A stretch of DNA of 42,973 bases from sequence record OZ035812.1. One strand, given 5' to 3'. Of the stretch, positions 1,293 to 36,373 are shown one piece after another. Below the pieces are notes generated by a model. That model saw only the letters and a program-made list of their open reading frames with translations. It made no database searches and was not told the DNA's origin. Numbering within the stretch: position 1 is the first letter of the stretch; every line of letters begins with the position of its first letter. The position numbers and the translations under genes were made by a program. The stretch is from Kagunavirus LM08P1.

Positions 1293-2768
1293 ATGTTAAC
1301 TATGAACGGTCAGAATCAGGGTGTTAAGACAAAACACCGGGAATGGCTGCATCACTTCGATAAATGGCAGAAGGTACGCCACGCGCTGGAAGGCGACCTT
1401 ATTCGCTATCTGCGCAACGTCGGGAAGAACGAACCTGACCCGACCTACGCAGCCCAGCGCCAGGAAGAATACGAGAACGGTGCTATCTGTTACAACTTCA
1501 CTAAACGTACCCTGGCGGGGATGACGGGGTCAGTGATGCGCAAAGACCCTGAGCAGATTATCCCGCCTGAACTTGAGTACCTGTTGCACAACGCTGACGG
1601 TTCGGGTGTAGGGCTGTGGCAGCACGCGCAGGATACGTTAATGGAGATTGACTCGATAGGACGCGGTGGGTTGCTGGTGGATGCCCCGGAAACAGCCGCA
1701 GCAACGGCGGCAGAGCAGAACGCGGGATTATTAAACCCGGTAATCGCATTCTATACCGCGGAGAACATTATCAACTGGAGACTCACCCGCATCGGTTCAG
1801 TGAACCGCGTGACGATGGTTGTATTGCGTGAGGCATGGGAATACTCGGAACCAGGCGCTGAGTTTGAAACAAAATTCGGCGAGCAATACCGCGTCCTTGA
1901 CCTGATTGACGGTCGCTACCGCCAGCGCATCTACCGCTTCGATGCCGAAGGTGGCGCACAGGATGAAGTAATCGAAATCTTCCCGGAACTCGGCGAACAG
2001 TTGCGCGGTAAAATCCCGTTCACGTTCATTGGCGCAAGCAACAACGACGCCACTATAGACGATGCGCCTTTACTGCCGTTAGCTGAGCTAAATATAGGAC
2101 ACTTCAGAAATTCGGCCGATGTGGAAGAGGCCAGCTTTATAGTAGGTCAACCGACACTGTTCATTGCCCCCGGCGAGAACATGAGCATGGAGCAGTGGAA
2201 AGAAGCCAACCCACACGGCATACGCATGGGGTCGCGTTCAGGCCACAACATCGGCTCCGGCGGAAATGCGTTTCTGGTTCAGGCGGCGGAAACTAACCTC
2301 GCCAAACAGAATATGCTGGATAAAGAGAATCAGGCCATCCAGATTGGCGCGCAGCTTATCACCCCGACGCAGCAAATCACCGCGGAATCGGCCCGCCTGC
2401 AACGCGGCGCCGACACGTCAGTCATGGCAACAATCGCACGTAACGTAAGCATGGCGTATACCGATGCGTTGCGCTGGGTGGCCGCGATGCTAGGGCTGCG
2501 TGAGGATACTGAAATTGAGTTCAAGCTGAATATGGAGTTCTTCCTGCAACCTATGACCGCTCAGGACCGTGCACAGTGGATGGCTGACATTAACGCAGGC
2601 CTGTTACCGGCTACTGCTTACTATGCTGCGTTGCGTAAGGCTGGCGTAACTGACTGGACCGACGAAGACATTCAGAACGCTATTGAAGACGCGCCGCTGC
2701 CGTTAGGCGCTGTTACTCAGGTGGCGGGAGAGATTCCGCAGTCGGCGCAGCAACAACAATCGGAGTAG
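1293..2768 (+). CDS. portal protein
   Basis: 491 aa ORF immediately after terminase large subunit; RBS GAGGA upstream; position and size typical of portal; no motif-level proof. Confidence 0.7.
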   Translation: MLTMNGQNQGVKTKHREWLHHFDKWQKVRHALEGDLIRYLRNVGKNEPDPTYAAQRQEEYENGAICYNFTKRTLAGMTGSVMRKDPEQIIPPELEYLLHNADGSGVGLWQHAQDTLMEIDSIGRGGLLVDAPETAAATAAEQNAGLLNPVIAFYTAENIINWRLTRIGSVNRVTMVVLREAWEYSEPGAEFETKFGEQYRVLDLIDGRYRQRIYRFDAEGGAQDEVIEIFPELGEQLRGKIPFTFIGASNNDATIDDAPLLPLAELNIGHFRNSADVEEASFIVGQPTLFIAPGENMSMEQWKEANPHGIRMGSRSGHNIGSGGNAFLVQAAETNLAKQNMLDKENQAIQIGAQLITPTQQITAESARLQRGADTSVMATIARNVSMAYTDALRWVAAMLGLREDTEIEFKLNMEFFLQPMTAQDRAQWMADINAGLLPATAYYAALRKAGVTDWTDEDIQNAIEDAPLPLGAVTQVAGEIPQSAQQQQSE

Positions 2769-2773
2769 AGAAA

Positions 2774-2804
2774 AAGGCCCCGTTATGGGGCCTTATTTTT
2801 ATTT
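2774..2804. terminator. intrinsic terminator hairpin (bidirectional)
   Basis: GGCCCCG-TTAT-GGGGCC hairpin flanked by A-run upstream and T-run downstream, between convergent portal (+) and 2799..3083 (-). Confidence 0.6.
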
Positions 2805-3083
2805 CTTTCCTAATGCTTTCTTGATTGCTCTGTTGGCCCGATTTAATGGATGGTCTTCATGGCAATCATCAGAAGATACTGCACAAACATCCTCGACGTA
2901 ATCGCGAAGCTGGCGAAGTGCTTCAAGTAACTCGGGTGCCGAGGTGATAAGTTTTGCGTTAGCTAATTTTACGGAGTCCTTTTCCCGCATACTCATTACC
3001 TCGGCCACATAAACGTCCCCCGCCCAGATAGCTGTTCCGTGATTAACCCATGCGCCGTCTGTACCTTTAAATTTGTGTGTCAT
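2799..3083 (-). CDS. hypothetical protein (opposite-strand gene in head module; possibly Ead/Ea22-like, motif APELLEAL recalled from memory)
   Basis: 94 aa ORF on minus strand with RBS AGGAGG upstream of ATG at 3083; own promoter element at 3107..3139; terminator at its 3' end. Confidence 0.55.
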   Translation of the reverse strand: MTHKFKGTDGAWVNHGTAIWAGDVYVAEVMSMREKDSVKLANAKLITSAPELLEALRQLRDYVEDVCAVSSDDCHEDHPLNRANRAIKKALGKK

Positions 3084-3106
3084 TTTTAACCTCCTGTTTA
3101 AGTTAA

Positions 3107-3139
3107 CTGAATAGTACCCTATTATATTGGTGTCTGCAA
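3107..3139 (-). promoter_or_regulatory. sigma70-like promoter with palindromic operator-like core (family 1), minus-directed
   Basis: Minus strand reads TTGCAG-N17-TACTAT with TATAATAGGG inside spacer; core TGAATAG-N4-CTATT inverted repeat; sits 24 nt upstream of minus gene start 3083. Confidence 0.55.
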
Positions 3140-3183
3140 ATATTATTTTTATGCGTTACACTGGCGATACTACAGGAGGGCAC

Positions 3184-4227
3184 ATGAGCTTACTTACATC
3201 CCTAATCAGCCACCAGATATGGCTGCAACGCACCGCATCCGGTGAAGTGAAAGACCTTGCGCCGTTTCTTCAGGAAATGCGGGACGAAATCAAACGGCAG
3301 GTCCTGTTATTCGGTGACGACGGGCGAAGCACTGCGCGACTGAATAAACTGTTGCGCGACCTCGAAGAAGCACTAACCGGACTTACCGGTGACTGGCAAA
3401 CAAAGCTGACAGAAGACCTTAAGGAGCTGGCAGCGTATGAGGCTGAGTGGAACACAAAGACACTGGCCGCCAACGTAAATGCGGAATTTGTTACGCCTAC
3501 TGCCGAGCAAGTGTGGGCCGCCGCCGAGTTTCAACCCTTATCATTAAGCGACAAACCTGTCGATTTCACTAAGCTGATGGATGGCTGGGGTGAAACCGAA
3601 GTCGCGCGCCTGGTAACTGGCGTTAAGATGGGCTTTGTCCAAGGCCAGACGACACGGCAGATTGTTAAGAATGTTGTTGGCGCTGGTGGACTAGCCGACA
3701 TCTCAGAACGTAACGCGACTACGGTAATCCGCACCGCGCTGTCCCACGTATCCAACGAGGCCCGTAACGAGACGTACCGCCAGAACGACAACATCATCGA
3801 GAAGTACGAGTGGGTGTCAACGCTTGACAGCCGCACCAGTACGATTTGCAGGGTCAGAGACGGGATGACGTGGGAAATTGGTAAGGGGCCGATGCCCCCA
3901 GCCCATCCGAACTGCCGGTCGTGCACGGCTCCGGTAATCAGTTCCGAGTTCGACTTCCTCGATAAAGGCGCAAAACGCGCGGCTAAAGGAGCGGACGGCG
4001 GTACTCAGGTAAGCACGGACACCACCTATTACGAGTTCCTTAAACAACAACCGGCGTGGTTTCAGGACCAGGCGCTCGGCCCGGTGCGAGGTAAGATTTT
4101 CCGTAACAGCGGTATATCGCCGGAAGAGTTTCGCGTAATATCTGTAGATGGTTTCGGGAATCCGCTCACGCTTAAGCAGATGGCGGAACTCGATAAACGT
4201 GTTGCTGATTATCTGAAAGGGGAATAA
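3184..4227 (+). CDS. head morphogenesis / minor head protein (Mu F / SPP1 gp7-like)
   Basis: ORF frame 3127..4227; most likely start ATG 3184 preceded by AGGAGGG; C-terminal region with conserved Cys/His pattern (STICRVRDG...PPAHPNCRSC) recalled as Mu F-like; position after portal. Confidence 0.65.
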   Translation: MSLLTSLISHQIWLQRTASGEVKDLAPFLQEMRDEIKRQVLLFGDDGRSTARLNKLLRDLEEALTGLTGDWQTKLTEDLKELAAYEAEWNTKTLAANVNAEFVTPTAEQVWAAAEFQPLSLSDKPVDFTKLMDGWGETEVARLVTGVKMGFVQGQTTRQIVKNVVGAGGLADISERNATTVIRTALSHVSNEARNETYRQNDNIIEKYEWVSTLDSRTSTICRVRDGMTWEIGKGPMPPAHPNCRSCTAPVISSEFDFLDKGAKRAAKGADGGTQVSTDTTYYEFLKQQPAWFQDQALGPVRGKIFRNSGISPEEFRVISVDGFGNPLTLKQMAELDKRVADYLKGE

Positions 4228-4688
4228 TGATGGGCTTTTTCAAAGTAACTGATGTACCTTCACGTCGCGTAGTCCAGTACGCCCGCGTGTCTGGCTCTGG
4301 CGAGAACGTGACCTACGTTGAGGATGAAAGTGTACTGGGTGAACCCGTAGACGAGATGCCATATGCGGATAAAACCGGTATCGCGCTGACGGCGGCAGGT
4401 ATGCTCTATGAGATTCCGTATCTGGCAGATGCTGGCGACGTGTATTTCTCGGTACAACCGCGGGACACGGAACTGGCTGACGGCAGCGCAGCTATCACTG
4501 TCGAAGTTAAAGCGGGTAAAGCGCCATATACGCTGACCTGGTACAAAGACGGGAAGGAAGTGGTAAACGCCCCGGAAGAGGCTTTGTCCCTGACGGTTAA
4601 CGCGACCGGCGAATACTTCGTTAAAGTTACTGATGCCGATGGTGTAGAGGCGGTGAGTAAAGCGGCGAAGGTTACTAAGCCAGAATGA
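4227..4688 (+). CDS. Ig-like domain protein (possible capsid-associated)
   Basis: 153 aa; C-terminal segment with alternating beta-strand pattern PYTLTWYKDGKEV...GEYFVKVTDADG resembling Ig-like (I-set) domains; start overlaps previous stop (TAATG). Confidence 0.5.
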   Translation: MMGFFKVTDVPSRRVVQYARVSGSGENVTYVEDESVLGEPVDEMPYADKTGIALTAAGMLYEIPYLADAGDVYFSVQPRDTELADGSAAITVEVKAGKAPYTLTWYKDGKEVVNAPEEALSLTVNATGEYFVKVTDADGVEAVSKAAKVTKPE

Positions 4689-4691
4689 TAA

Positions 4692-4720
4692 GAGGCCCCA
4701 TAATGGGGCCTTAGATTTTT
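4692..4720 (+). terminator. intrinsic terminator hairpin
   Basis: GGCCCCA-TAA-TGGGGCC hairpin followed by T-rich run TTAGATTTTT. Confidence 0.55.
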
Positions 4721-5025
4721 CCTATTAGATTTTTAATTCTGTCGCGTTCTATTCTTTTCCCTTCTTCTACTCCCTCATTGAAGTATCTTTCTACATCATC
4801 CTTATTGACCTTACGAACTGCTGCGCCCTCTTTATATAGCTCTTGATTGTCGCGCAATACCTTAATCTTAGCGATTATTTCATTAAAAGGTGCGTCAGCA
4901 CGTATTTTGAGCATAGACCTTACCTGTTCTACGAACCATGCAAAATTAGGCTTTTTTGATAATTTCTCTCTTAAAACAGCGTTCTCTTGTTCCGCTTTTG
5001 TGGCGCGAGCACGATAATCAATCAT
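4711..5025 (-). CDS. hypothetical protein (opposite-strand, AT-rich gene in head module)
   Basis: 104 aa ORF on minus strand, lysine/glutamate rich; ATG at 5025; promoter element at 5063..5095; visibly more AT-rich than flanking structural genes. Confidence 0.55.
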   Translation of the reverse strand: MIDYRARATKAEQENAVLREKLSKKPNFAWFVEQVRSMLKIRADAPFNEIIAKIKVLRDNQELYKEGAAVRKVNKDDVERYFNEGVEEGKRIERDRIKNLIGKI

Positions 5026-5062
5026 TTTAGCAAACCTCTATCTTCATTAAACAGCACCAATA

Positions 5063-5095
5063 ACTGAATAGTACCCTATTATATCGGGGCATGTA
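5063..5095 (-). promoter_or_regulatory. sigma70-like promoter with palindromic operator-like core (family 1), minus-directed
   Basis: Minus strand reads TTACAT-N17-TACTAT with TATAATAGGG in spacer; nearly identical to elements at 3107, 14187, 36341, 37776. Confidence 0.55.
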
Positions 5096-5111
5096 AACTA
5101 TTTATTTACGT

Positions 5112-5197: not shown

Positions 5198-5397
5198 GAG
5201 CTTGTGAAGTATGAACAAGCGACCGCGGCGCGGGCAGGTAACGGAGCGGGACGTAAGTCCTGAGTGTAGTTACGCTGACGCGTTCGGAAGGGCCATACTC
5301 TATTGCTTGTGTAAAAAGTAACTGGTTTACTGAGATTACGCCGTTTCTATGTTTAAATGATAAGGACTAGCGCCCCGCTTTATGGCGGGGCTTTACT
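5198..5397 (+). ncRNA. candidate structured noncoding RNA / leader element, copy A (unidentified family)
   Basis: About 200 nt between promoter and terminator hairpin (5371..5391 + T-run); shares conserved blocks with copy B (36067..36300) with hairpin-preserving substitutions; no reading frame conserved between copies. Confidence 0.5.
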
Positions 5398-10572: not shown

Positions 10573-10985
10573 TGGGCTACTTTGAGGACTTAACCAAAGC
10601 GTTCGATGTGCCGCTGGTAGCCTTCGGAACCGCCAACGGCATCAAGGTTGCGCTTGAAAACATCGACGCGCCGACATCAACCGATACGCCGTATCTGGCG
10701 AGTTACATGTTGCTGGCGGATACGGAACAGGCTGATTTGTTCTTCACGGAACAACGCGCCGGTGTTTATCAGGTCGACATTAACTACGCATCGGTGAAAG
10801 GTAGCGCGCCAATCAATAAAATGGCAGACTTACTTAACACGGCGTTTAAAGCAGGTAAGTCATTTTCACGTAACGACATCTGCGCCGAGGTTCAATCGGT
10901 AAGCCTGGGGCCGCTGATTGTAGAAAACGGATGGGCCAAAAGACCATTGTCAATTAACTTTATTGCATTCACCAAGAGGCTGTGA
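10569..10985 (+). CDS. tail terminator / completion protein (putative)
   Basis: 138 aa immediately upstream of major tail protein; positional inference. Confidence 0.45.
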   Translation: MMGYFEDLTKAFDVPLVAFGTANGIKVALENIDAPTSTDTPYLASYMLLADTEQADLFFTEQRAGVYQVDINYASVKGSAPINKMADLLNTAFKAGKSFSRNDICAEVQSVSLGPLIVENGWAKRPLSINFIAFTKRL

Positions 10986-10987
10986 AT

Positions 10988-12154
10988 ATGGCTACAACTC
11001 CTTTTAAGGGCGCGAATACCGCGCAATTCTATGTGGCGGAAGTCACCCCGGGCGTAACACCGACTAACCCGGTATGGTCGCCGTTGCGTAACACAGGTGG
11101 CGTTCCCGCTATCACCCGCGACACGCTGACATCCAACGAACTGGACGGCAGCCGTGAAACTACATCCATCCGCACCGGTAACAAACAGGTTAGCGGTGAA
11201 TACGCGATCGAGCTTAGCTCTAAAAGCCAGGACGACTGGCTGGCGGGCGCTTTAGGTTCCACGTGGCAATCAGGTGTCTCTCTGTCAGGGCTGTCGATTA
11301 CCGTCGCGCCTGCAGGTAAGACATTTACACGCTCCACCGGTAGCTTTATTTCTGACGGCGTTGAAGTAGGCGACCTGATTGCGTTTACCGACTTAACCGG
11401 CGACAACGCAAAACCATTTATCGTCACTGCGGTAGAGGCACTGGTAGTGACCGGTGCGGGCATCCAGCACACTCTCACCACAGAGACCGCTACTACTGCT
11501 GCTAAGACAGGCGACAAACTGGAAACCGGTAGCCAGTGCAAGACGTTCTCTATTCTCACCTGGTACAAAGGCCAGTGCGGCGGGACTGACGCATACACGT
11601 TAACCAAAGGCGTGGAAGTTTCTGGTTTTACCGTTGAGCAGGCCGTTAACGCGATGGTAACGGGCAGCTTCCCGTTCATCGGGCGCAGCCAGGAGATTCT
11701 CACTACGCCACCGTCTGGTTCTGACTTCTCCTCTGTTACGTTTGGTGACGAGCCGTTCTCCTCGGTCGACGTTTCCGTGTTCGATGGCTCTACGCCGTTG
11801 CGTTGCGACAGCCTGACCATCACCAACGATAACAGCGCGTCCGCACAGTTCGAACTCGGCAACTCTAACGTTGCGTTTGTGGAGCGTAGCCGCGCGGCTA
11901 ACACCTTCTCCATCTCAGGCAAGCTGTATGACATGGCTATGATTCAGAAGTTTATCAACGAGCAGCAGGTAGAGATTAACTCTATTCTGGCGGGGGTAAA
12001 CGGAGCTATGTCTTTCAGCCTGAAACGCGCAGAGCTCACGGCGGTTACACCAGAAATATCCGGCCCGGAATCAATTACCCAAAGTATAGAAGGGCAGTCC
12101 ACAGGCAACCAATACCAGTCGTCTATCGTAATTCAACGTATTAGTTACGCATAA
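10988..12154 (+). CDS. major tail protein
   Basis: ORF frame from 10982 (GTG); ATG at 10988 with RBS AAGAGG; about 389 aa, T/S/G-rich; sits between neck genes and chaperone/tape-measure pair. Confidence 0.6.
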   Translation: MATTPFKGANTAQFYVAEVTPGVTPTNPVWSPLRNTGGVPAITRDTLTSNELDGSRETTSIRTGNKQVSGEYAIELSSKSQDDWLAGALGSTWQSGVSLSGLSITVAPAGKTFTRSTGSFISDGVEVGDLIAFTDLTGDNAKPFIVTAVEALVVTGAGIQHTLTTETATTAAKTGDKLETGSQCKTFSILTWYKGQCGGTDAYTLTKGVEVSGFTVEQAVNAMVTGSFPFIGRSQEILTTPPSGSDFSSVTFGDEPFSSVDVSVFDGSTPLRCDSLTITNDNSASAQFELGNSNVAFVERSRAANTFSISGKLYDMAMIQKFINEQQVEINSILAGVNGAMSFSLKRAELTAVTPEISGPESITQSIEGQSTGNQYQSSIVIQRISYA

Positions 12155-12156
12155 AA

Positions 12157-12184
12157 CTAAGGCCCCTTTCGGGGCCTTTTTCTT
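12157..12184. terminator. bidirectional intrinsic terminator
   Basis: AAGGCCCC-TTTC-GGGGCCTT hairpin with A-run upstream and T-run downstream; separates + major tail gene from - island; almost identical to terminator at 24206. Confidence 0.65.
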
Positions 12185-12413
12185 ACTCATCAATATTGCT
12201 TCGGTATTCCCGTAACTTCTCCAGACTTTCAATTGCTTCCGCTAAGTCGGTTCCGGTGTCCTTGTGTCCGCGCAAGCCCATGCACAATAGCTTCTTCAAT
12301 GCGTGCTGTAGCGCCGGGTCGCGTATATCGAAGGCGCGGAGCACATCATAAACGTCTACTGTCATAGTGCTGCCGTGAGTGTTTGTCATTGTGCGGTTGT
12401 ATTTTGAAGTCAT
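12183..12413 (-). CDS. hypothetical protein (island gene 4)
   Basis: 76 aa; start ATG 12413 overlaps stop of upstream gene (ATGA coupling). Confidence 0.5.
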   Translation of the reverse strand: MTSKYNRTMTNTHGSTMTVDVYDVLRAFDIRDPALQHALKKLLCMGLRGHKDTGTDLAEAIESLEKLREYRSNIDE

Positions 12414-12643
12414 AAATGGCTCTCATCTATAAGAACGATAACTGCCGAAATCGAAACGGCACCTACATATAAAAGACGCATCTCGGTCGGCGCTATAGCG
12501 GTAACAGCTTCGTACAGGCCCGAGAACACGGACAAATCCATAGAGATAAATGTTAAGACCGCCGCCATTCCTAGTACCGCGGTGGATAAAACCAGTAAAA
12601 CCACAACAGGCATTATGGCGAAAATCCACAAGGCTTTAATCAT
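12410..12643 (-). CDS. small membrane protein (two predicted TM helices)
   Basis: 77 aa, two long hydrophobic stretches; start ATG 12643 overlaps stop of metallophosphoesterase gene (ATGA). Confidence 0.5.
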   Translation of the reverse strand: MIKALWIFAIMPVVVLLVLSTAVLGMAAVLTFISMDLSVFSGLYEAVTAIAPTEMRLLYVGAVSISAVIVLIDESHL

Positions 12644-13770
12644 CCCAGCATCTCCGGTGAAATAGTTAAACGTGCGACCTCGCCATATTCGGCGCTATAA
12701 GTAATTACATTTGCGCTACGACCCGACATCCAGCCGCCTCTGGAGGCGTAGGCATCTTTAGCCGCCAGGGTGCGGTGTTGCTCAACAATCATGTTACGGC
12801 TTTCTACAATCTTCTGATGGTGCAGGTGGCCTACGTGGGCGTAACTGTAAACACTCTCGCCGAACGCTTTGCGGAACTTGGCAATCATAACCGGTTCGAT
12901 AGCGTCGAAGCGTGCTTTATGCCCGTGATGGAAGAACAGCGTCGTTTTGCCGTGTTGCACCATCTTGTAAACATCCGGCGACGTATCGACGAACACACGA
13001 GGCTCGTTGTCGTATAGCGTACTGAACATCTCAGCCAACCAAATCATTCCGCTTTCGTCATGATTCCCTTGCACGATAAGCAAGCGAACATTTTTATGCT
13101 TAACAAGGGCCATATCGACAACACGGCGCACCATACGAATCATGTAGCGGACGAGTTTCTGATAGCGGGTGTCAGCGTCAAGAACATGACCGCTTGCCGG
13201 TGTAACGGCGTCCAGACTATCGAAGTGCGCAAGGTCCCCCAGCAGACTAATAACTCCTGTTCCTGCGTCCGGCGCTTTCTGAAACGCCGCGTCGAACCAG
13301 CGTGAGAACAGGTCTTCCGCAATCTTCATATCCCAGTCGTCGCCGCTCTCGTCGGCCCAGGCCAGCATACCGAGATGGAAATCAGATACCGTGTAAAGAT
13401 TGAGTAGCTTGTCGTCACGTTTGGCGCGAACGGCTTTAACAGGTGCAACTGGCGTAATCTCTGACTTCATGCCTTCGATCACGGCTTTCATCAATTCAAC
13501 CTGACGTTCAGCGTCAGTGTCAGTCTTAACCCATTGCAGTTTAGTGTTGCCAAACTCATCGACAAGGGATGACGTTCCTTTAATCTTGTAGCCATCTGGC
13601 ACAAGGTGGCTAACGTCGCGCCCGTGGCCTACACCTTTCTTTGCCAGCTTCGCTTTGCGGATGCGAATAACGCGGTCTGAGATGCCATATTTACGAGCTA
13701 TATCGATAGTTTTAACTCCGGCGTTCAATTCTTCCTGTAACTGTTCGTCGGTTATTTTCTTCCGGGCCAT
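12640..13770 (-). CDS. HTH domain fused to calcineurin-like metallophosphoesterase
   Basis: 376 aa; N-terminal HTH-like segment (TIDIARKYGISDRVIRIRKAKL); metallophosphoesterase signature motifs in order: DFH, GDLAHFD, GNHDE, HHGH, GHLHH; RBS GAGGAAG. Confidence 0.75.
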   Translation of the reverse strand: MARKKITDEQLQEELNAGVKTIDIARKYGISDRVIRIRKAKLAKKGVGHGRDVSHLVPDGYKIKGTSSLVDEFGNTKLQWVKTDTDAERQVELMKAVIEGMKSEITPVAPVKAVRAKRDDKLLNLYTVSDFHLGMLAWADESGDDWDMKIAEDLFSRWFDAAFQKAPDAGTGVISLLGDLAHFDSLDAVTPASGHVLDADTRYQKLVRYMIRMVRRVVDMALVKHKNVRLLIVQGNHDESGMIWLAEMFSTLYDNEPRVFVDTSPDVYKMVQHGKTTLFFHHGHKARFDAIEPVMIAKFRKAFGESVYSYAHVGHLHHQKIVESRNMIVEQHRTLAAKDAYASRGGWMSGRSANVITYSAEYGEVARLTISPEMLG

Positions 13771-13835
13771 GCTTACTTCCTCGTGTTTAGGATTTGTCCT
13801 ATTTAACCACAGTGGATTCCTTTAAATAAAGGCAA

Positions 13836-14162
13836 CTATTTACTTTCTGCGCCTATCGCCCACCCTGTCATTACCATTTGCAGACGGGTGGCTGTCAGCA
13901 GGCTATAGAAAGCATCTCCGTTTTTCTCTACAGAACGTATTACCGTGTATGTTACGGCTTGCGGAGGCAGGCCCGATTTACCAACCTCTACGGCTGCCTC
14001 ACACTCGCGAACGGTAGAGTCCTTAAATGCCTTTACAATAGTAGGGTCGGCTCTATCAAGCACACCAGAAGTCATAAGAACGGATTCACTAAACACCTGT
14101 TCACACGGAGACCCAAAAGTAGCAAAAGACATAAAACCAAGAGCTAACACTAATTTACGCAT
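13836..14162 (-). CDS. secreted/periplasmic hypothetical protein
   Basis: 108 aa with N-terminal signal-peptide-like segment MRKLVLALGFMSFATFG; RBS GAGGAAA; first gene downstream of promoter 14187..14220. Confidence 0.5.
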   Translation of the reverse strand: MRKLVLALGFMSFATFGSPCEQVFSESVLMTSGVLDRADPTIVKAFKDSTVRECEAAVEVGKSGLPPQAVTYTVIRSVEKNGDAFYSLLTATRLQMVMTGWAIGAESK

Positions 14163-14186
14163 AATTATTTCCTCAGTAAGTTACAG

Positions 14187-14220
14187 GTGAATAGTACCCT
14201 ATTATATTGGGGTGTGCAAG
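14187..14220 (-). promoter_or_regulatory. sigma70-like promoter with palindromic operator-like core (family 1), minus-directed
   Basis: Minus strand reads TTGCAC-N17-TACTAT with TATAATAGGG in spacer; 31 of 33 positions identical to plus-strand element at 36341..36373. Confidence 0.55.
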
Positions 14221-14326: not shown

Positions 14327-14743
14327 ATGAAACTTTCTGATTTCTATTTTGCCGACCGCCACGCCGCCGGTACTAAAATGCCTATCCTTCTGCCCAGTGG
14401 TAAAGATTCCGGTGAATGGTTGCAGGTCATCGGCCCCGATTGTGACGCTGGTGTTCGTGCGGGCCGTGCCTACACAACGGCAATTCGACGCCTTACGGAA
14501 GAACTTGCGCCATTAGATAAAGAGTGCGAGGCGCTGAATAACTGGGCGCGCTATAATGATGAGAAGGGCTGGCGGGTGATGGACCTGAACAAGCAGCTTG
14601 CCGTGGAAATCGTCACCGGTTGGTCATTCGACGAACCATTCAGCAAAGAGGCGCTTGCTAACCTGTTCGACCAGTACAGTGGGTTGGCAGAGGCCGTAGT
14701 TAAGCATCACACCGATAGCCGTGAGAAACTCTCGGAAAAGTAA
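14327..14743 (+). CDS. tail assembly chaperone (G-like)
   Basis: 138 aa ORF immediately upstream of tape measure gene; overlapping downstream ORF in -1 frame. Confidence 0.6.
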   Translation: MKLSDFYFADRHAAGTKMPILLPSGKDSGEWLQVIGPDCDAGVRAGRAYTTAIRRLTEELAPLDKECEALNNWARYNDEKGWRVMDLNKQLAVEIVTGWSFDEPFSKEALANLFDQYSGLAEAVVKHHTDSREKLSEK

Positions 14744-15105
14744 AAGCGCTGTATGAATTTGCGCAATGGTGCTTTGTCGACCGCCACAAACGTAAGCAAT
14801 TCGACGACATCGCGGCGGGCCACCAGGCGGCTTTGATTGCAATGGGCGTGATTAAAGAACCGCAGATGAAAGAAGCGACGGGGCCGGAATGCCCCGTTTC
14901 TCTTATCGACGTGTTCGAGAAATACCGTGCCATTAAATTCCTACAGCGCGAAACAGATGATACTATCGTTATAATCCCGCGCGATGCGCTCAAATGGCAA
15001 GATTTGGTAGCGTTTCGTGATGTCGCCGGTTACGGCATAAGTTTGTTCGAAGCCGAGGTTATCATGGGCTTAGACGGAATATTTGAGGGCAGAGAAGATG
15101 GCTGA
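14725..15105 (+). CDS. tail assembly chaperone frameshift extension (T-like segment, -1 frame)
   Basis: Open frame from 14725 to stop at 15103..15105 in the -1 frame relative to 14327..14743; overlap contains GGAAAAG (14734..14740), resembling known slippery heptamers; ends overlapping tape measure start. Confidence 0.4.
   Translation, partial: ETLGKVKALYEFAQWCFVDRHKRKQFDDIAAGHQAALIAMGVIKEPQMKEATGPECPVSLIDVFEKYRAIKFLQRETDDTIVIIPRDALKWQDLVAFRDVAGYGISLFEAEVIMGLDGIFEGREDG
14734..14740 (+). other. candidate -1 programmed ribosomal frameshift slippery site (G GAA AAG)
   Basis: Located in last codons of chaperone ORF where the -1 frame is open; not a canonical X XXY YYZ heptamer, so tentative. 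Confidence 0.3.
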
Positions 15106-22238: not shown

Positions 22239-24203
22239 ATGTCAAGCGGATGCGGTGACGTTTTAAGCCTGGCGGATTTACAAACCGCCAAGAAACACCA
22301 GATTTTTGAGGCTGAAGTAATTACCGGCAAATCCGGCGGAGTTGCTGGCGGCACTAATATCGACTACGCAACTAACCCGGTTACGCTGCAAACGCAGAAG
22401 ACAATGCCTGCTATTCTGCGCGACATCGGCTTTCAGCCAGCATCATTCGACTTCACTTCTGGGGGGACACTCACCACAGACGACCGAAACAAGGCTGTGT
22501 TGTGGCCTTTGGCCGATGGTGGTGATGGGGATTGGTATTACTGGGAGGGCGCGCTGCCGAAGGTTATCCCAGCGGCATCAACTCCGGCGTCTACTGGTGG
22601 TGTTGCCGAAGGTGCCTGGAGGCCTGTGGGGGATATTACGTTACGCAGAGAACTAGCTAGTACTAACGGAGCCCAGGCTATTGGTACCTTATCGGGCGGT
22701 AGCGTACAAGATGAATTAACTAAGCTACCCTTAACGTATATCGCCCAGCAAAAATCACCTATTACCATCACAGTAGGGCCTTCTGGTGATTTTTCAACTA
22801 TCAATGACGCGATAACTAGCGTGGCGAAGTATCAGTATGTCCTCGCTTCGGGTAATACTGGTATCCGTATCACCCTGTTAAGCGGTTTTTTGATGGAAGA
22901 ACAGGTCATTGTCGACTTTTTAAATCTTTCGTTTATAGAAATATACTCAACGTCGGTTGTGCATATATCTCGCGCGGCGCTTACAACCGCGGTTGAGGGG
23001 TACTACCCTGCCTTTTGCGCAAAAAATTCAGCGGTCCTACCAAAGATAAACGCCTCTTTTGATATGGGTTGGACCTCCGGGGCTCAAGACCAATCTGTGG
23101 CATTTCTGGCCTACGGAGCTGGGTCCGCAATATCTATTGCAAGCGGTAAAGGATGTATTAGGAGTTACGGGTTCGGCATTCTAGCGTCTAATGGCGCTAT
23201 GTTCAGCGCCGACGGTACTGTGTGGGACGATTGCGCCGGTGATGGGGTTTCTGTGTACGCAGGAGGCTCAGGCTCCGCTAAAAACGCAACGGCAAACCGT
23301 TGCTACAATGGGTTCGTTGCGAATGGTGGCGTACTTGATGCCACAAGCTCTGTTGCGAAAGGAACCAGAAGTGCTGGCTTTGCGGCCAGAAAATCTGGGG
23401 TGCTGAACGCTGAATTTGCGGATGCGCAAAACGGGGTAACGTACGGCTTCTATTCCGCGGTAAGTTCGATGCTAAACGCTACCCGTGGTAACTGTAGCGG
23501 TTGCCGGTTTGGCATATCTGCGCAGAGAAGCTCAAAAGTCGCAGCGGAAGAGGTTACAGCTGATAATTGCCTGGAAACGAATATATCAGCCCGCAGGTAC
23601 TCAGAGATTGAGGCACAAAGCTGTCATGCCGTAAACACCACTACGACTCCGCTCTACTGTATTCGCGCCAACTATTCAGGGTCGGTTGTTGTTGAGTCCG
23701 GAACTATAGGCGGGGCTTGCACACATAATATTTGCCGGGCGACCACCAACGCAGAGATACAAGCTACCGATACTAAGATGTCAGGGGCGATAGGTACATC
23801 GATTGCGGTCTTCGTTGACGAGTCGTCAAACTTTAACGGACGCAGGATGAACCTGAACCATTCAACCTCGGAGGGGACCGCAGTTCATGTTCTCCGGGGG
23901 AGCACTGCGGACATTAGCGATAGTACTATAGTTGCGGGTAATAACTATGGGGTGGTGTCCCAGTATTGCGCTAACGTAGCTGCGGATAACGCGAAAGTGA
24001 ACGGCTCTTCGGATTATAGTGTATACGCTACCGACGGCGGGAAAATATCAGTAACTAACAGTAATGTCAGGCGCGACAACTCGACAGACCAAAATACGGA
24101 CATTGTAATATCTCGTGGTGGTATTATTTCGGCATTTGGTGCATTAGGCGGCGTAAACACAACAGTTAACGCTGTATCTGAAAAAGGCATAATCTTCAAA
24201 TAA
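22239..24203 (+). CDS. tailspike / receptor-binding protein with probable beta-helix (possible depolymerase)
   Basis: 654 aa, last gene of tail module; G/S/N/A-rich repetitive segments typical of right-handed beta-helix proteins; function inferred. Confidence 0.5.
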   Translation: MSSGCGDVLSLADLQTAKKHQIFEAEVITGKSGGVAGGTNIDYATNPVTLQTQKTMPAILRDIGFQPASFDFTSGGTLTTDDRNKAVLWPLADGGDGDWYYWEGALPKVIPAASTPASTGGVAEGAWRPVGDITLRRELASTNGAQAIGTLSGGSVQDELTKLPLTYIAQQKSPITITVGPSGDFSTINDAITSVAKYQYVLASGNTGIRITLLSGFLMEEQVIVDFLNLSFIEIYSTSVVHISRAALTTAVEGYYPAFCAKNSAVLPKINASFDMGWTSGAQDQSVAFLAYGAGSAISIASGKGCIRSYGFGILASNGAMFSADGTVWDDCAGDGVSVYAGGSGSAKNATANRCYNGFVANGGVLDATSSVAKGTRSAGFAARKSGVLNAEFADAQNGVTYGFYSAVSSMLNATRGNCSGCRFGISAQRSSKVAAEEVTADNCLETNISARRYSEIEAQSCHAVNTTTTPLYCIRANYSGSVVVESGTIGGACTHNICRATTNAEIQATDTKMSGAIGTSIAVFVDESSNFNGRRMNLNHSTSEGTAVHVLRGSTADISDSTIVAGNNYGVVSQYCANVAADNAKVNGSSDYSVYATDGGKISVTNSNVRRDNSTDQNTDIVISRGGIISAFGALGGVNTTVNAVSEKGIIFK

Positions 24204-24205
24204 AA

Positions 24206-24232
24206 CTAAGGCCCCATTTGGGGCCTTTTCTC
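24206..24232. terminator. bidirectional intrinsic terminator
   Basis: AAGGCCCC-ATTT-GGGGCCTT hairpin with T-run; lies between convergent tail (+) and replication (-) blocks. Confidence 0.65.
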
Positions 24233-24369
24233 TACTCTTCTGATAACTTCTCAAGTACAAACGCCAGTTGTGCGTTAGCGGCATCTCTTTGCTGCCGTAG
24301 GCGTAGAACCTCCTCCTCAAGTTCCTTGATACGTTTTTGCAATGCCGGAATCGGGGCTATGATGTTCAT
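24232..24369 (-). CDS. small hypothetical protein (45 aa, predicted helical)
   Basis: Found manually; ATG 24369 overlaps helicase stop (ATGA) with AGGAG upstream; sequence MNIIAPIPALQKRIKELEEEVLRLRQQ... Confidence 0.3.
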   Translation of the reverse strand: MNIIAPIPALQKRIKELEEEVLRLRQQRDAANAQLAFVLEKLSEE

Positions 24370-29228: not shown

Positions 29229-29252
29229 GTAAAAAGGCCCAATAAAGGGCCT
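29229..29252 (-). terminator. intrinsic terminator / attenuator hairpin between DUF2815-like gene and polymerase
   Basis: On minus strand AGGCCC-TTTATT-GGGCCT followed by TTTTT, upstream of polymerase RBS. Confidence 0.4.
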
Positions 29253-29272
29253 TAATTAAACAGATTCAGATA

Positions 29273-36066: not shown

Positions 36067-36300
36067 AGCTTGTGAGATATCGCAAGCGACCGCGGAGCGG
36101 CAGGGAACGCAACGCGTGCCATTAGGCACTTGAGTGTAGTTCCGCTGGCGCTTTCGGAAGGGCCAAAGTCTATTGTTAATCCCGCCTAAATACCCAAGTC
36201 ACTGATAATTAAAAGTTTCTATAGTTGCCGTAAGCAAGGTGGAGAGTACTTCACTCCGCTGGGGTGGGCTAACGCCCACCCACTGCGTTGCGTACTCTTT
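36067..36300 (+). ncRNA. candidate structured noncoding RNA / leader element, copy B (unidentified family)
   Basis: Shares conserved sequence blocks with copy A; compensatory hairpin differences; ends in long hairpin (36242..36296) followed by CTTTT; no conserved ORF. Confidence 0.5.
36242..36300 (+). terminator. terminator-like long hairpin closing RNA element B
   Basis: GAGAGTAC...GTGGGC-TAAC-GCCCAC...GTACTCT followed by TTTTAAG. Confidence 0.45.
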
Positions 36301-36340: not shown

Positions 36341-36373
36341 TTGCACACCCCAACATAATAGGATACTATTCAC
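36341..36373 (+). promoter_or_regulatory. sigma70-like promoter with palindromic operator-like core (family 1), plus-directed
   Basis: TTGCAC-N17-TACTAT with CATAATAGG in spacer; 22 nt upstream of RBS GAGGAGTGAGGG of 36395. Confidence 0.55.

Follow-up and report, generated by a model that had tools for sequence, protein, structure and literature searches.

Kagunavirus LM08P1 (sequence record OZ035812.1) carries, inside its tail module, a cassette of four genes that run against the surrounding structural genes and that make up a conserved transcription unit of the Guernseyvirinae. The window, i.e. the whole stretch of 42,973 nucleotides (nt) that was analysed, is essentially the complete genome of this Kagunavirus, a member of that subfamily. 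The constant core gene of the cassette encodes a protein of 376 amino acids (aa) in which an N-terminal helix-turn-helix (HTH) is combined with a catalytically complete set of metallophosphoesterase (MPE) motifs, and which belongs to a nuclease-like branch of the MPEs. The unit shares its operator with the other non-structural units of the phage. We put the probability at roughly 0.45 that this enzyme is a metal-dependent DNase with host DNA as its main target, which would serve nucleotide salvage as well as the shut-off of the host and its defences.

A conserved antisense cassette in the tail module

The cassette is found between the gene for the tail tube (major tail) protein (10982-12154, plus strand) and the gene for the tail assembly chaperone (14327-14743, plus strand), as these are annotated in close relatives. 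It consists of four open reading frames (ORFs) on the minus strand, exactly where a preliminary description of the DNA had placed them: a predicted secreted (periplasmic) protein of 108 aa (13836-14162), the HTH-MPE of 376 aa (12640-13770), a small membrane protein of 77 aa with two hydrophobic segments (12410-12643) and a protein of 76 aa (12183-12413). Two ATGA stop/start overlaps, GGATGATTAAA and TTTATGACTTCA, join the genes for the 376, 77 and 76 aa proteins, and ribosome binding sites of the GAGGA type are located upstream of both the 108 aa and the 376 aa gene. Since conservation at the protein level extends to other phages for each of the four, the ORFs should be regarded as genes and not as chance ORFs. 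The translational coupling, the protein with two transmembrane segments and the signal-peptide protein of the earlier account were thus all recovered, in the form of both overlaps, two hydrophobic stretches and a signal-like N-terminus.

At the DNA level the cassette region is 93.7% identical to that of Kagunavirus LM08P2 and about 91% identical to that of the BASEL phages Bas70-76, and matches were obtained in 449 phage records. In the Kagunavirus members Bas75, L, fFiEco02, NTEC3 and fTaEco01, and also in the Jerseyvirus members Jersey and wast, the genes for the tail tube and the chaperone likewise flank the cassette. Because the locus is syntenic in these two genera, the cassette is not a recent insertion, and the proposal that it is an accessory island inserted into a late operon is not supported. 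It is already present, annotated computationally, in hundreds of deposited genomes and is largely ordinary for this phage group; the only rarity specific to the window is the 77 aa membrane gene.

The 376 aa gene was present in every cassette that we compared. At an identity of at least 60% the enzyme was retrieved from 463 records and the subfamily's tail tube protein from a similar number, 493, and homologs of the enzyme extend to 2053 phage records in several families, in contexts of DNA and nucleotide metabolism. These figures speak against the enzyme as cargo. A role as accessory or superinfection-exclusion cargo, as initially suggested for the cassette as a whole, is plausible for the flanking slots, one of which is filled by an Imm-like alternate in some relatives and another by the 77 aa gene in only seven records, but is not supported for the enzyme.

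The HTH-metallophosphoesterase and its proposed role

The 376 aa protein matches PHROG 704, a family named 'DNA repair exonuclease', over its full length (E 3.8e-166; residues 4-375 on profile positions 2-389 of 390); the name of the family is a computational annotation. Compared with the other members nothing essential differs: the cassette is placed alike in Bas70-76, NTEC3, fFiEco02, Jersey and others, and the window adds the rare membrane gene of 77 aa. Proteins with 97-99% identity are encoded in many genomes and contigs of Kagunavirus. The 2053 phage records of the family cover the Guernseyvirinae, the Drexlerviridae, Dhillonvirus, Vibrio phages, N4-like roseophages and Campylobacter myoviruses, and 4638 clusters were counted at 50% identity. 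The preliminary description was to be refuted if the protein proved to be a standard conserved component with a known role; wide conservation, as PHROG 704, is indeed what we found, whereas no experimentally established role was found in the literature.

The MPE motifs DFH, GDLAH, GNHDE, HHGH and GHLHH are all present; they correspond to the superfamily signature of DxH, GDxx(D/H), GNH(D/E), H and GHxH, which binds two metal ions. Across 59 homologs with 31-50% identity no variation was seen at residues D130, H132, G178, D179, N236, H237, H282, G314 and H317, while at least 90% of these sequences retain H182 and H315. As the motif residues are invariant over such diverse homologs, the protein is predicted to be catalytically competent. 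The Pfam gathering cut-offs for Metallophos and Metallophos_2 were missed by the 376 aa protein (21.8 bits versus 27 and 17.7 versus 21.5), and 12 and 11 of the 59 homologs, respectively, reached E <=0.01 with these two families. Since these scores fall under the cut-off, the assignment to the superfamily rests on the motifs and the fold, and the protein is a divergent branch of the calcineurin-like MPEs.

An AlphaFold2 model built on the alignment of the 59 homologs (pLDDT 91.8) predicts an HTH at residues 8-43 (helices 8-16, 21-28 and 32-43), a beta-hairpin plus helix at residues 61-104 and, at residues 119-376, an MPE core with the beta-sandwich fold typical of MPEs; the model ends with this core and contains no C-terminal capping domain. 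Several homologs match HTH families of Pfam, namely Sigma70_r4_2 in eight members (best E 1.5e-9), GerE (2.4e-8), HTH_8 and others, from which it follows that the HTH is real and of the sigma-region-4/LuxR/Fis kind. The DNA-binding domain is conserved across the family. The combination of an HTH with a complete MPE motif set, claimed earlier from the letters alone, is thereby confirmed by the invariant residues, the model and the Pfam matches of the homologs.

The folds closest to the model are those of PolD DP1, Mre11 and SbcD, the nuclease branch of the superfamily. These proteins lack the N-terminal HTH and the beta-hairpin domain of the window enzyme, which for its part has no capping domain, no polymerase partner and no adjacent Rad50/SbcC-type ATPase (the neighbouring genes encode 108, 77 and 76 aa). 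Cyclic-nucleotide and dinucleotide phosphodiesterases also match the model well (MJ0936 13.6, YfcE 12.9, GpdQ 12.6, Rv0805 12.1, Ap4A hydrolase 11.7). Their similarity bears on an improbable alternative, namely that the enzyme is a counter-defence factor that hydrolyses immune second messengers such as cyclic oligonucleotides, cyclic nucleoside monophosphates, signals derived from ADP-ribose or others. Such a role would suit a cassette that bears the promoter and operator of non-structural genes and has exclusion-type genes in its neighbouring slots. However, the best structural matches are nucleases, and a conserved DNA-binding HTH is hard to account for in an enzyme of small molecules. The signal-degrading enzymes known from phages differ in fold, Acb1 being a 2H phosphoesterase and Apyc1 an enzyme with the metallo-beta-lactamase fold. 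Moreover, the gene is near-universal in several phage families, unlike typical anti-defence genes, which are patchy. The hydrolysis of nucleotide second messengers, mentioned in the preliminary description as one option, is for these reasons the less likely reading. Searches against the PADLOC defence models gave no family at E <=0.1 for any of the four proteins, and NCBIfam and single-sequence PDB searches yielded nothing useful.

The genomic contexts of the homologs point in the same direction. In roseophage DSS3phi2 the homolog comes after genes for dCMP deaminase and thymidylate synthase. In Campylobacter phage F361 a copy that lacks the HTH follows genes for DNA ligase and a Holliday-junction resolvase, and in a Vibrio phage the homolog is found among endolysin, HNH and head genes. 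In the Drexlerviridae, where it follows the helicase, VRR-NUC and Dam genes, it closes the replication module and precedes the lysis genes, and in Dhillonvirus (phage B2) it comes after the lysis genes, directly upstream of terS/terL. Finally, in the K1-type Kagunavirus phages the enzyme is followed by a PNKP-type phosphatase and a deoxynucleoside monophosphate (dNMP) kinase. Taken together, these contexts suggest that the enzyme acts in DNA or nucleotide metabolism and not in signalling.

Which DNA it would act upon is a further matter. It is conceivable, though we regard it as distinctly less probable than an attack on host DNA, that the enzyme processes phage DNA, as a partnerless SbcD/Mre11-like nuclease that trims ends, hairpins or branches during replication, recombination or the maturation of concatemers for headful packaging. 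The nearest folds (DP1, Mre11, SbcD) are what such an enzyme should resemble, its place after the ligase and resolvase genes in F361, at the close of the replication module in the Drexlerviridae and directly in front of terS/terL in B2 would fit, and a core function in DNA metabolism should be near-universal in the subfamily, as this gene is. In the Guernseyvirinae, however, the gene is physically apart from the replication module, no Rad50/SbcC-like ATPase is annotated in the close relative Bas75, and the model is devoid of a capping domain. The association with a dNMP kinase and a phosphatase in the K1-type phages suits nucleotide salvage better.

Host-DNA degradation by phage enzymes of this general type has precedents. 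In phage T4 the breakdown of host DNA to nucleotides depends on the Mre11-like gp46/47. The A1 protein of phage T5, a predicted metallophosphatase, was reported to be necessary and sufficient for host DNA degradation and is said to resemble nucleases of double-strand break repair and proofreading subunits of polymerases (bioRxiv 10.64898/2026.04.02.716235). Like the window enzyme, A1 is a nuclease-like phage MPE encoded in an early-type unit; the T5 pre-early region (T5 locus 1706-4134) holds A1, the DNA-binding protein A2, the 65 aa two-transmembrane protein T5.005 and, nearby, the dNMP phosphatase dmp, a mix that resembles our cassette. A1 belongs to phrog_1745 only and has 556 aa, as opposed to phrog_704 and 376 aa for the window enzyme. 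Homology to A1 and A2 was rejected: hhalign aligned only 21 columns around the GNHD of motif III, and A2 is unrelated to the HTH. The resemblance to A1 is at most a functional analogy. A second precedent is Gp48 of the Cluster A mycobacteriophage A10ZJ24, an early MPE with the five motifs and phosphodiesterase activity that is toxic, disrupts host genomic DNA, silences defence genes and acts in counter-defence (PMC12287305). No HTH fusion has been described for Gp48, which comes from another phage lineage and another host, and it is compared here with the window enzyme by description only.

On this reading, the 376 aa enzyme would be produced together with the non-structural and not the structural proteins, and would attack DNA, most likely the host chromosome, with the HTH supplying the contact to the DNA. 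Such an attack would release 5'-dNMPs for phage DNA synthesis and at the same time shut down host gene expression, including that of defence genes, and the released products may be processed by the downstream nucleotide enzymes or by the DUF3310-like 76 aa protein. A wider version of this proposal, which we put forward only tentatively and hold to be less probable than the DNase activity as such, takes the whole HTH-MPE family to be the host-chromosome-degrading DNase of these virulent phages, a functional analogue in one polypeptide of T5 A1 plus A2. The HTH would then target either DNA in general or the TAATAG-N4-CTATTA operators, the downstream DUF3310-like protein, or the dNMP kinase and phosphatase that can take its place, would pass the nucleotides on to phage DNA synthesis, and the loss of host DNA would disarm inducible defences.

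Several points weigh against a DNase directed at the host. Literature searches returned no biochemical or genetic data on the enzyme family; for Kagunavirus, Jerseyvirus, the Drexlerviridae or T1 in connection with a phosphoesterase or the degradation of host DNA, descriptive genome papers were all that came up. The preference of the model for nuclease folds is modest, at about 2 Z units above the small-molecule phosphodiesterases, and a comparison of the family profile with PDB sequences found SbcD and Mre11 only at insignificant E-values of 0.66-1.1. The link to T5 A1 is local, confined to motif III, with an hhalign probability of 15.6%. The position by lysis and terminase genes in Dhillonvirus and the Drexlerviridae could mean a later role, for instance in the processing of DNA for packaging. 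In addition, the degradation of host DNA could be the task of other proteins, as the phage already encodes an exonuclease and a resolvase according to the annotation of Bas75. In that relative the plus strand carries the structural genes, clusters of small ORFs and the lysis genes, and the minus strand a replication module of the T7 type, with DNA polymerase, gp2.5-like single-stranded DNA-binding protein, exonuclease, helicase-primase and resolvase. The proposal would also require that phage DNA escape the nuclease, and the timing of the cassette is deduced solely from its shared promoter and operator.

Promoter, operator palindrome and terminator

Upstream of the cassette a putative sigma-70-type promoter is located on the minus strand (TTGCAC-17 nt-TACTAT, 14191-14219), and is overlapped by an operator-like palindromic core, TAATAGGGTACTATT (14190-14204). 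The promoter belongs to a repeat family, of which three copies were found in the window at <=3 mismatches against 0.00 expected, with further copies in other scans: the 29-nt block recurs at 3111-3139 and around 5068-5096 on the minus strand, and at 36341-36369 and around 37777 on the plus strand. The block is identical in five other Kagunavirus loci, and its counterpart in Jerseyvirus is a perfect palindrome, TAATAGGCCACTATTA.

The palindrome, (T/G)AATAG-N4-CTATT(A/C), occurs at about ten sites, with 18 strand matches against 0.42 expected. Its core sites, each of about 15 nt, include those at 3110, 5067, 14190, 26311, 29963, 32820, 32865, 36356 and 37792, and they coincide with candidate promoters of non-structural gene blocks, which could be divided into two classes that together cover all non-structural units. 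In class A (TTGCAC/TTTACA-17-TACTAT; 3110, 5067 and 14190 on the minus strand, 36356 and 37792 on the plus strand) the palindrome lies over the spacer and the -10 element, and every copy is found 25-35 nt upstream of a strong ribosome binding site and small genes. In class B (TTGACA-17/18-TATAGT or TATATT; 26311, 29963 and 32820, all on the minus strand), ahead of blocks of replication genes, the palindrome lies in the spacer. The occurrence of the same core in both promoter layouts suggests that a single dimeric regulator controls all non-structural units. The cassette and the non-structural units thus have an operator in common, namely the palindrome found at their promoters. Of the early promoter postulated in the preliminary description, the promoter and the operator held in common with non-structural units were thus recovered, and it is from this sharing only that an early timing may be deduced.

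Alternatively, the enzyme might be mainly a transcription regulator. Its sigma-region-4-like HTH might bind the shared palindrome, or RNA polymerase, and switch off the non-structural promoters, in which case the phosphoesterase would be auxiliary or act as a protein phosphatase like that of phage lambda. The operator overlaps the promoter of the enzyme's own unit as well as other non-structural promoters, the HTH families matched by the homologs include Sigma70_r4_2 and GerE, and the T5 study reports that A1 associates with RNA polymerase and dampens the transcription of pre-early genes (bioRxiv 10.64898/2026.04.02.716235). We nevertheless consider a primarily regulatory function very unlikely, and continue to prefer the host-directed DNase.

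At its other end the cassette is closed by a predicted bidirectional intrinsic terminator (12159-12178), AAGGCCCC-N4-GGGGCCTT, that is common to the tail tube gene on the plus strand and the cassette on the minus strand. The hairpin of 8 GC-rich base pairs folds at -15.4 kcal/mol (z -4.6) on the plus strand, where it is followed by UUUUUCUU, and at -21.6 kcal/mol (z -5.7) on the minus strand, where it is followed by AGUUUUAU. No shuffled sequence folds equally well. With this strong folding and U-runs on both sides, the bidirectional terminator described earlier stands. Related hairpins are present at 2772-2800, 4690-4718, 24200-24240 and 29231-29259.

Two more antisense mini-cassettes, at 2772-3139 and 4690-5096, were observed in the plus-strand head module. 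Their architecture is that of the main cassette, with a class A promoter on the right, a AAGGCCCC-N4-GGGGCCTT bidirectional terminator on the left and one small gene in between, encoding proteins of 94 aa (2799-3083, phrog_1273) and 104 aa (4711-5025, phrog_10768), respectively, to which no function is assigned. Near class A promoters, a repeat element of about 80 nt was seen in intergenic DNA at 5225-5312 and 36095-36182 (plus strand), with a 45-nt core that is 89% identical. The two copies share a nested stem-loop in their predicted folds, and the apical hairpin stays paired despite differences in sequence (GGGAC-GUAA-GUCCU versus GUGCC-AUUA-GGCAC). The energy z-scores of the element are weak (-0.1 and -1.9) and it has no match in Rfam; a scan of the entire window likewise matched zero Rfam families.

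A candidate promoter of opposite direction, GTTACA-17-TATATT (14180-14208, plus strand), was recognized as a consensus match only, at 9 of 12 positions. It uses the palindrome of the cassette promoter and faces the tail chaperone gene. The site may accordingly be a bidirectional promoter that restarts the transcription of tail genes past the terminator at 12159-12178. Downstream of the chaperone gene itself (14327-14743), a different frame is open at 14833-15105 (region 14327-15105), and at the corresponding place in fFiEco02 the gene FE2_026 is annotated as a chaperone product of a programmed frameshift, joined from two pieces.

Variable slots, small proteins and implications

The genes around the enzyme are swappable. 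The first slot holds either the 108 aa protein or, in fTaEco01 and wast, a superinfection immunity protein similar to T4 Imm (PF14373). The slot after the enzyme is empty in Bas75 and is occupied by a 66 aa ORF in fFiEco02, by an HNH or other endonuclease in NTEC3 and wast, and by the 77 aa protein in the window. Most members carry the 76 aa gene (403 records at an identity of at least 60%), which is replaced in the K1-type phages by a PNKP-type HAD phosphatase (PF25109) and a T4-gp1-like dNMP kinase (phrog_139); extra genes for DNA-binding or anti-repressor proteins can come after the 76 aa gene. Genes for HNH or other endonucleases lie within or beside the cassette in NTEC3 (locus 2328-2798), fFiEco02 (locus 1375-2007) and wast (locus 4171-4671). 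As these homing-type genes have been inserted at different points in different relatives, the region appears to be a hotspot for the insertion of mobile endonucleases.

The 108 aa protein (PHROG 14165, function not assigned) starts with MRK and a hydrophobic stretch of 13 residues, which is predicted to be a signal peptide of the cleavable type. Directly after this signal-like N-terminus comes an invariant P-C-E, and two cysteines, C20 and C54, are invariant. A proline immediately before the cysteine does not fit a lipobox. Because a proline always precedes the invariant cysteine (GSP/AHP/GTP/GAP-C), a lipoprotein was rejected. The protein was found in only 98 phage records, all Guernseyvirinae-like, and matched no Pfam family, including that of Imm. 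Although Imm-like proteins fill the same slot in other phages and the 108 aa protein is likewise predicted to be exported to the envelope, there is no sequence relation between them and the equivalence is positional; the 108 aa protein is of a secreted, soluble type with its two cysteines, and not a small membrane protein.

Two hydrophobic stretches, at about residues 4-34 and 55-73, mark the 77 aa protein, the gene of which is coupled by ATGA on both sides. The protein has no family in Pfam, PHROG, NCBIfam or PADLOC, is absent from Bas75, and was retrieved from only seven phage records, at 38-93% identity. The secreted and the membrane protein of these slots are most likely independent, envelope-acting accessory factors of the superinfection-exclusion type.

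The 76 aa protein was found in 773 phage records and matches the C-terminal third (60-75 positions) of longer PHROG families, among them 2452 and 17613. Its AlphaFold2 model (pLDDT 87.6) predicts a beta-hairpin followed by three helices. In a search of BFVD with this model, members of its own family ranked highest, some of them as fusions with proteins that bear the name DNA ligase or phosphodiesterase, and after them came models of DUF3310, SaV-like and nucleotide-kinase proteins (E 8e-3 to 3e-2, TMq 0.6-0.72). The PDB holds no fold match, and thus no solved structure with this fold. In T7 the nucleotide kinase gp1.7 carries DUF3310 (the SaV-like family PF11753) at residues 122-184, and both DUF3310 and the 76 aa domain are known as stand-alone proteins and as the C-terminal part of longer ones in phages. 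Their PHROG sets, however, do not overlap, none of 24 members of the 76 aa family matched PF11753 or had any Pfam hit at E <=10, and the hhalign comparison with gp1.7 was negative (probability 0.3%). Membership of DUF3310 by sequence was therefore rejected, and we treat the 76 aa protein as a putative fold-level structural relative of DUF3310.

Two further ideas about the 76 aa protein were also rejected. It is not the detached C-terminus of the 'ATPase' of K1-type phages, since the gene in question, L_10 of phage L, encodes an unrelated P-loop dNMP kinase; the K1-type genes thus replace the 76 aa gene and do not extend it. Nor does the enzyme have it as a partner everywhere: in DSS3phi2 and F361 the homologs are followed by small ORFs that bear no relation to the 76 aa protein, and in other families the genes for the enzyme and the 76 aa protein are not adjacent.

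With more than 2000 sequenced phages encoding it, the HTH-MPE is among the most widespread phage proteins whose function is assigned only by computational annotation, and its carriers include T1-like, Jersey-like and Webervirus phages, which are common in therapy and biocontrol. The function of this very widespread family is directly testable. The cassette as such, in which a constant enzyme is flanked by hypervariable slots under a shared operator, is for that reason a convenient place to search for new exclusion and counter-defence genes. Some defence systems are triggered by the degradation products of host DNA (bioRxiv 10.64898/2026.01.15.699771). If the enzyme is indeed a nuclease of host DNA, both the shut-off of the host and the supply of nucleotides in these phages would be accounted for, with consequences for the risk of transduction and for the range of defence systems that sense these phages.

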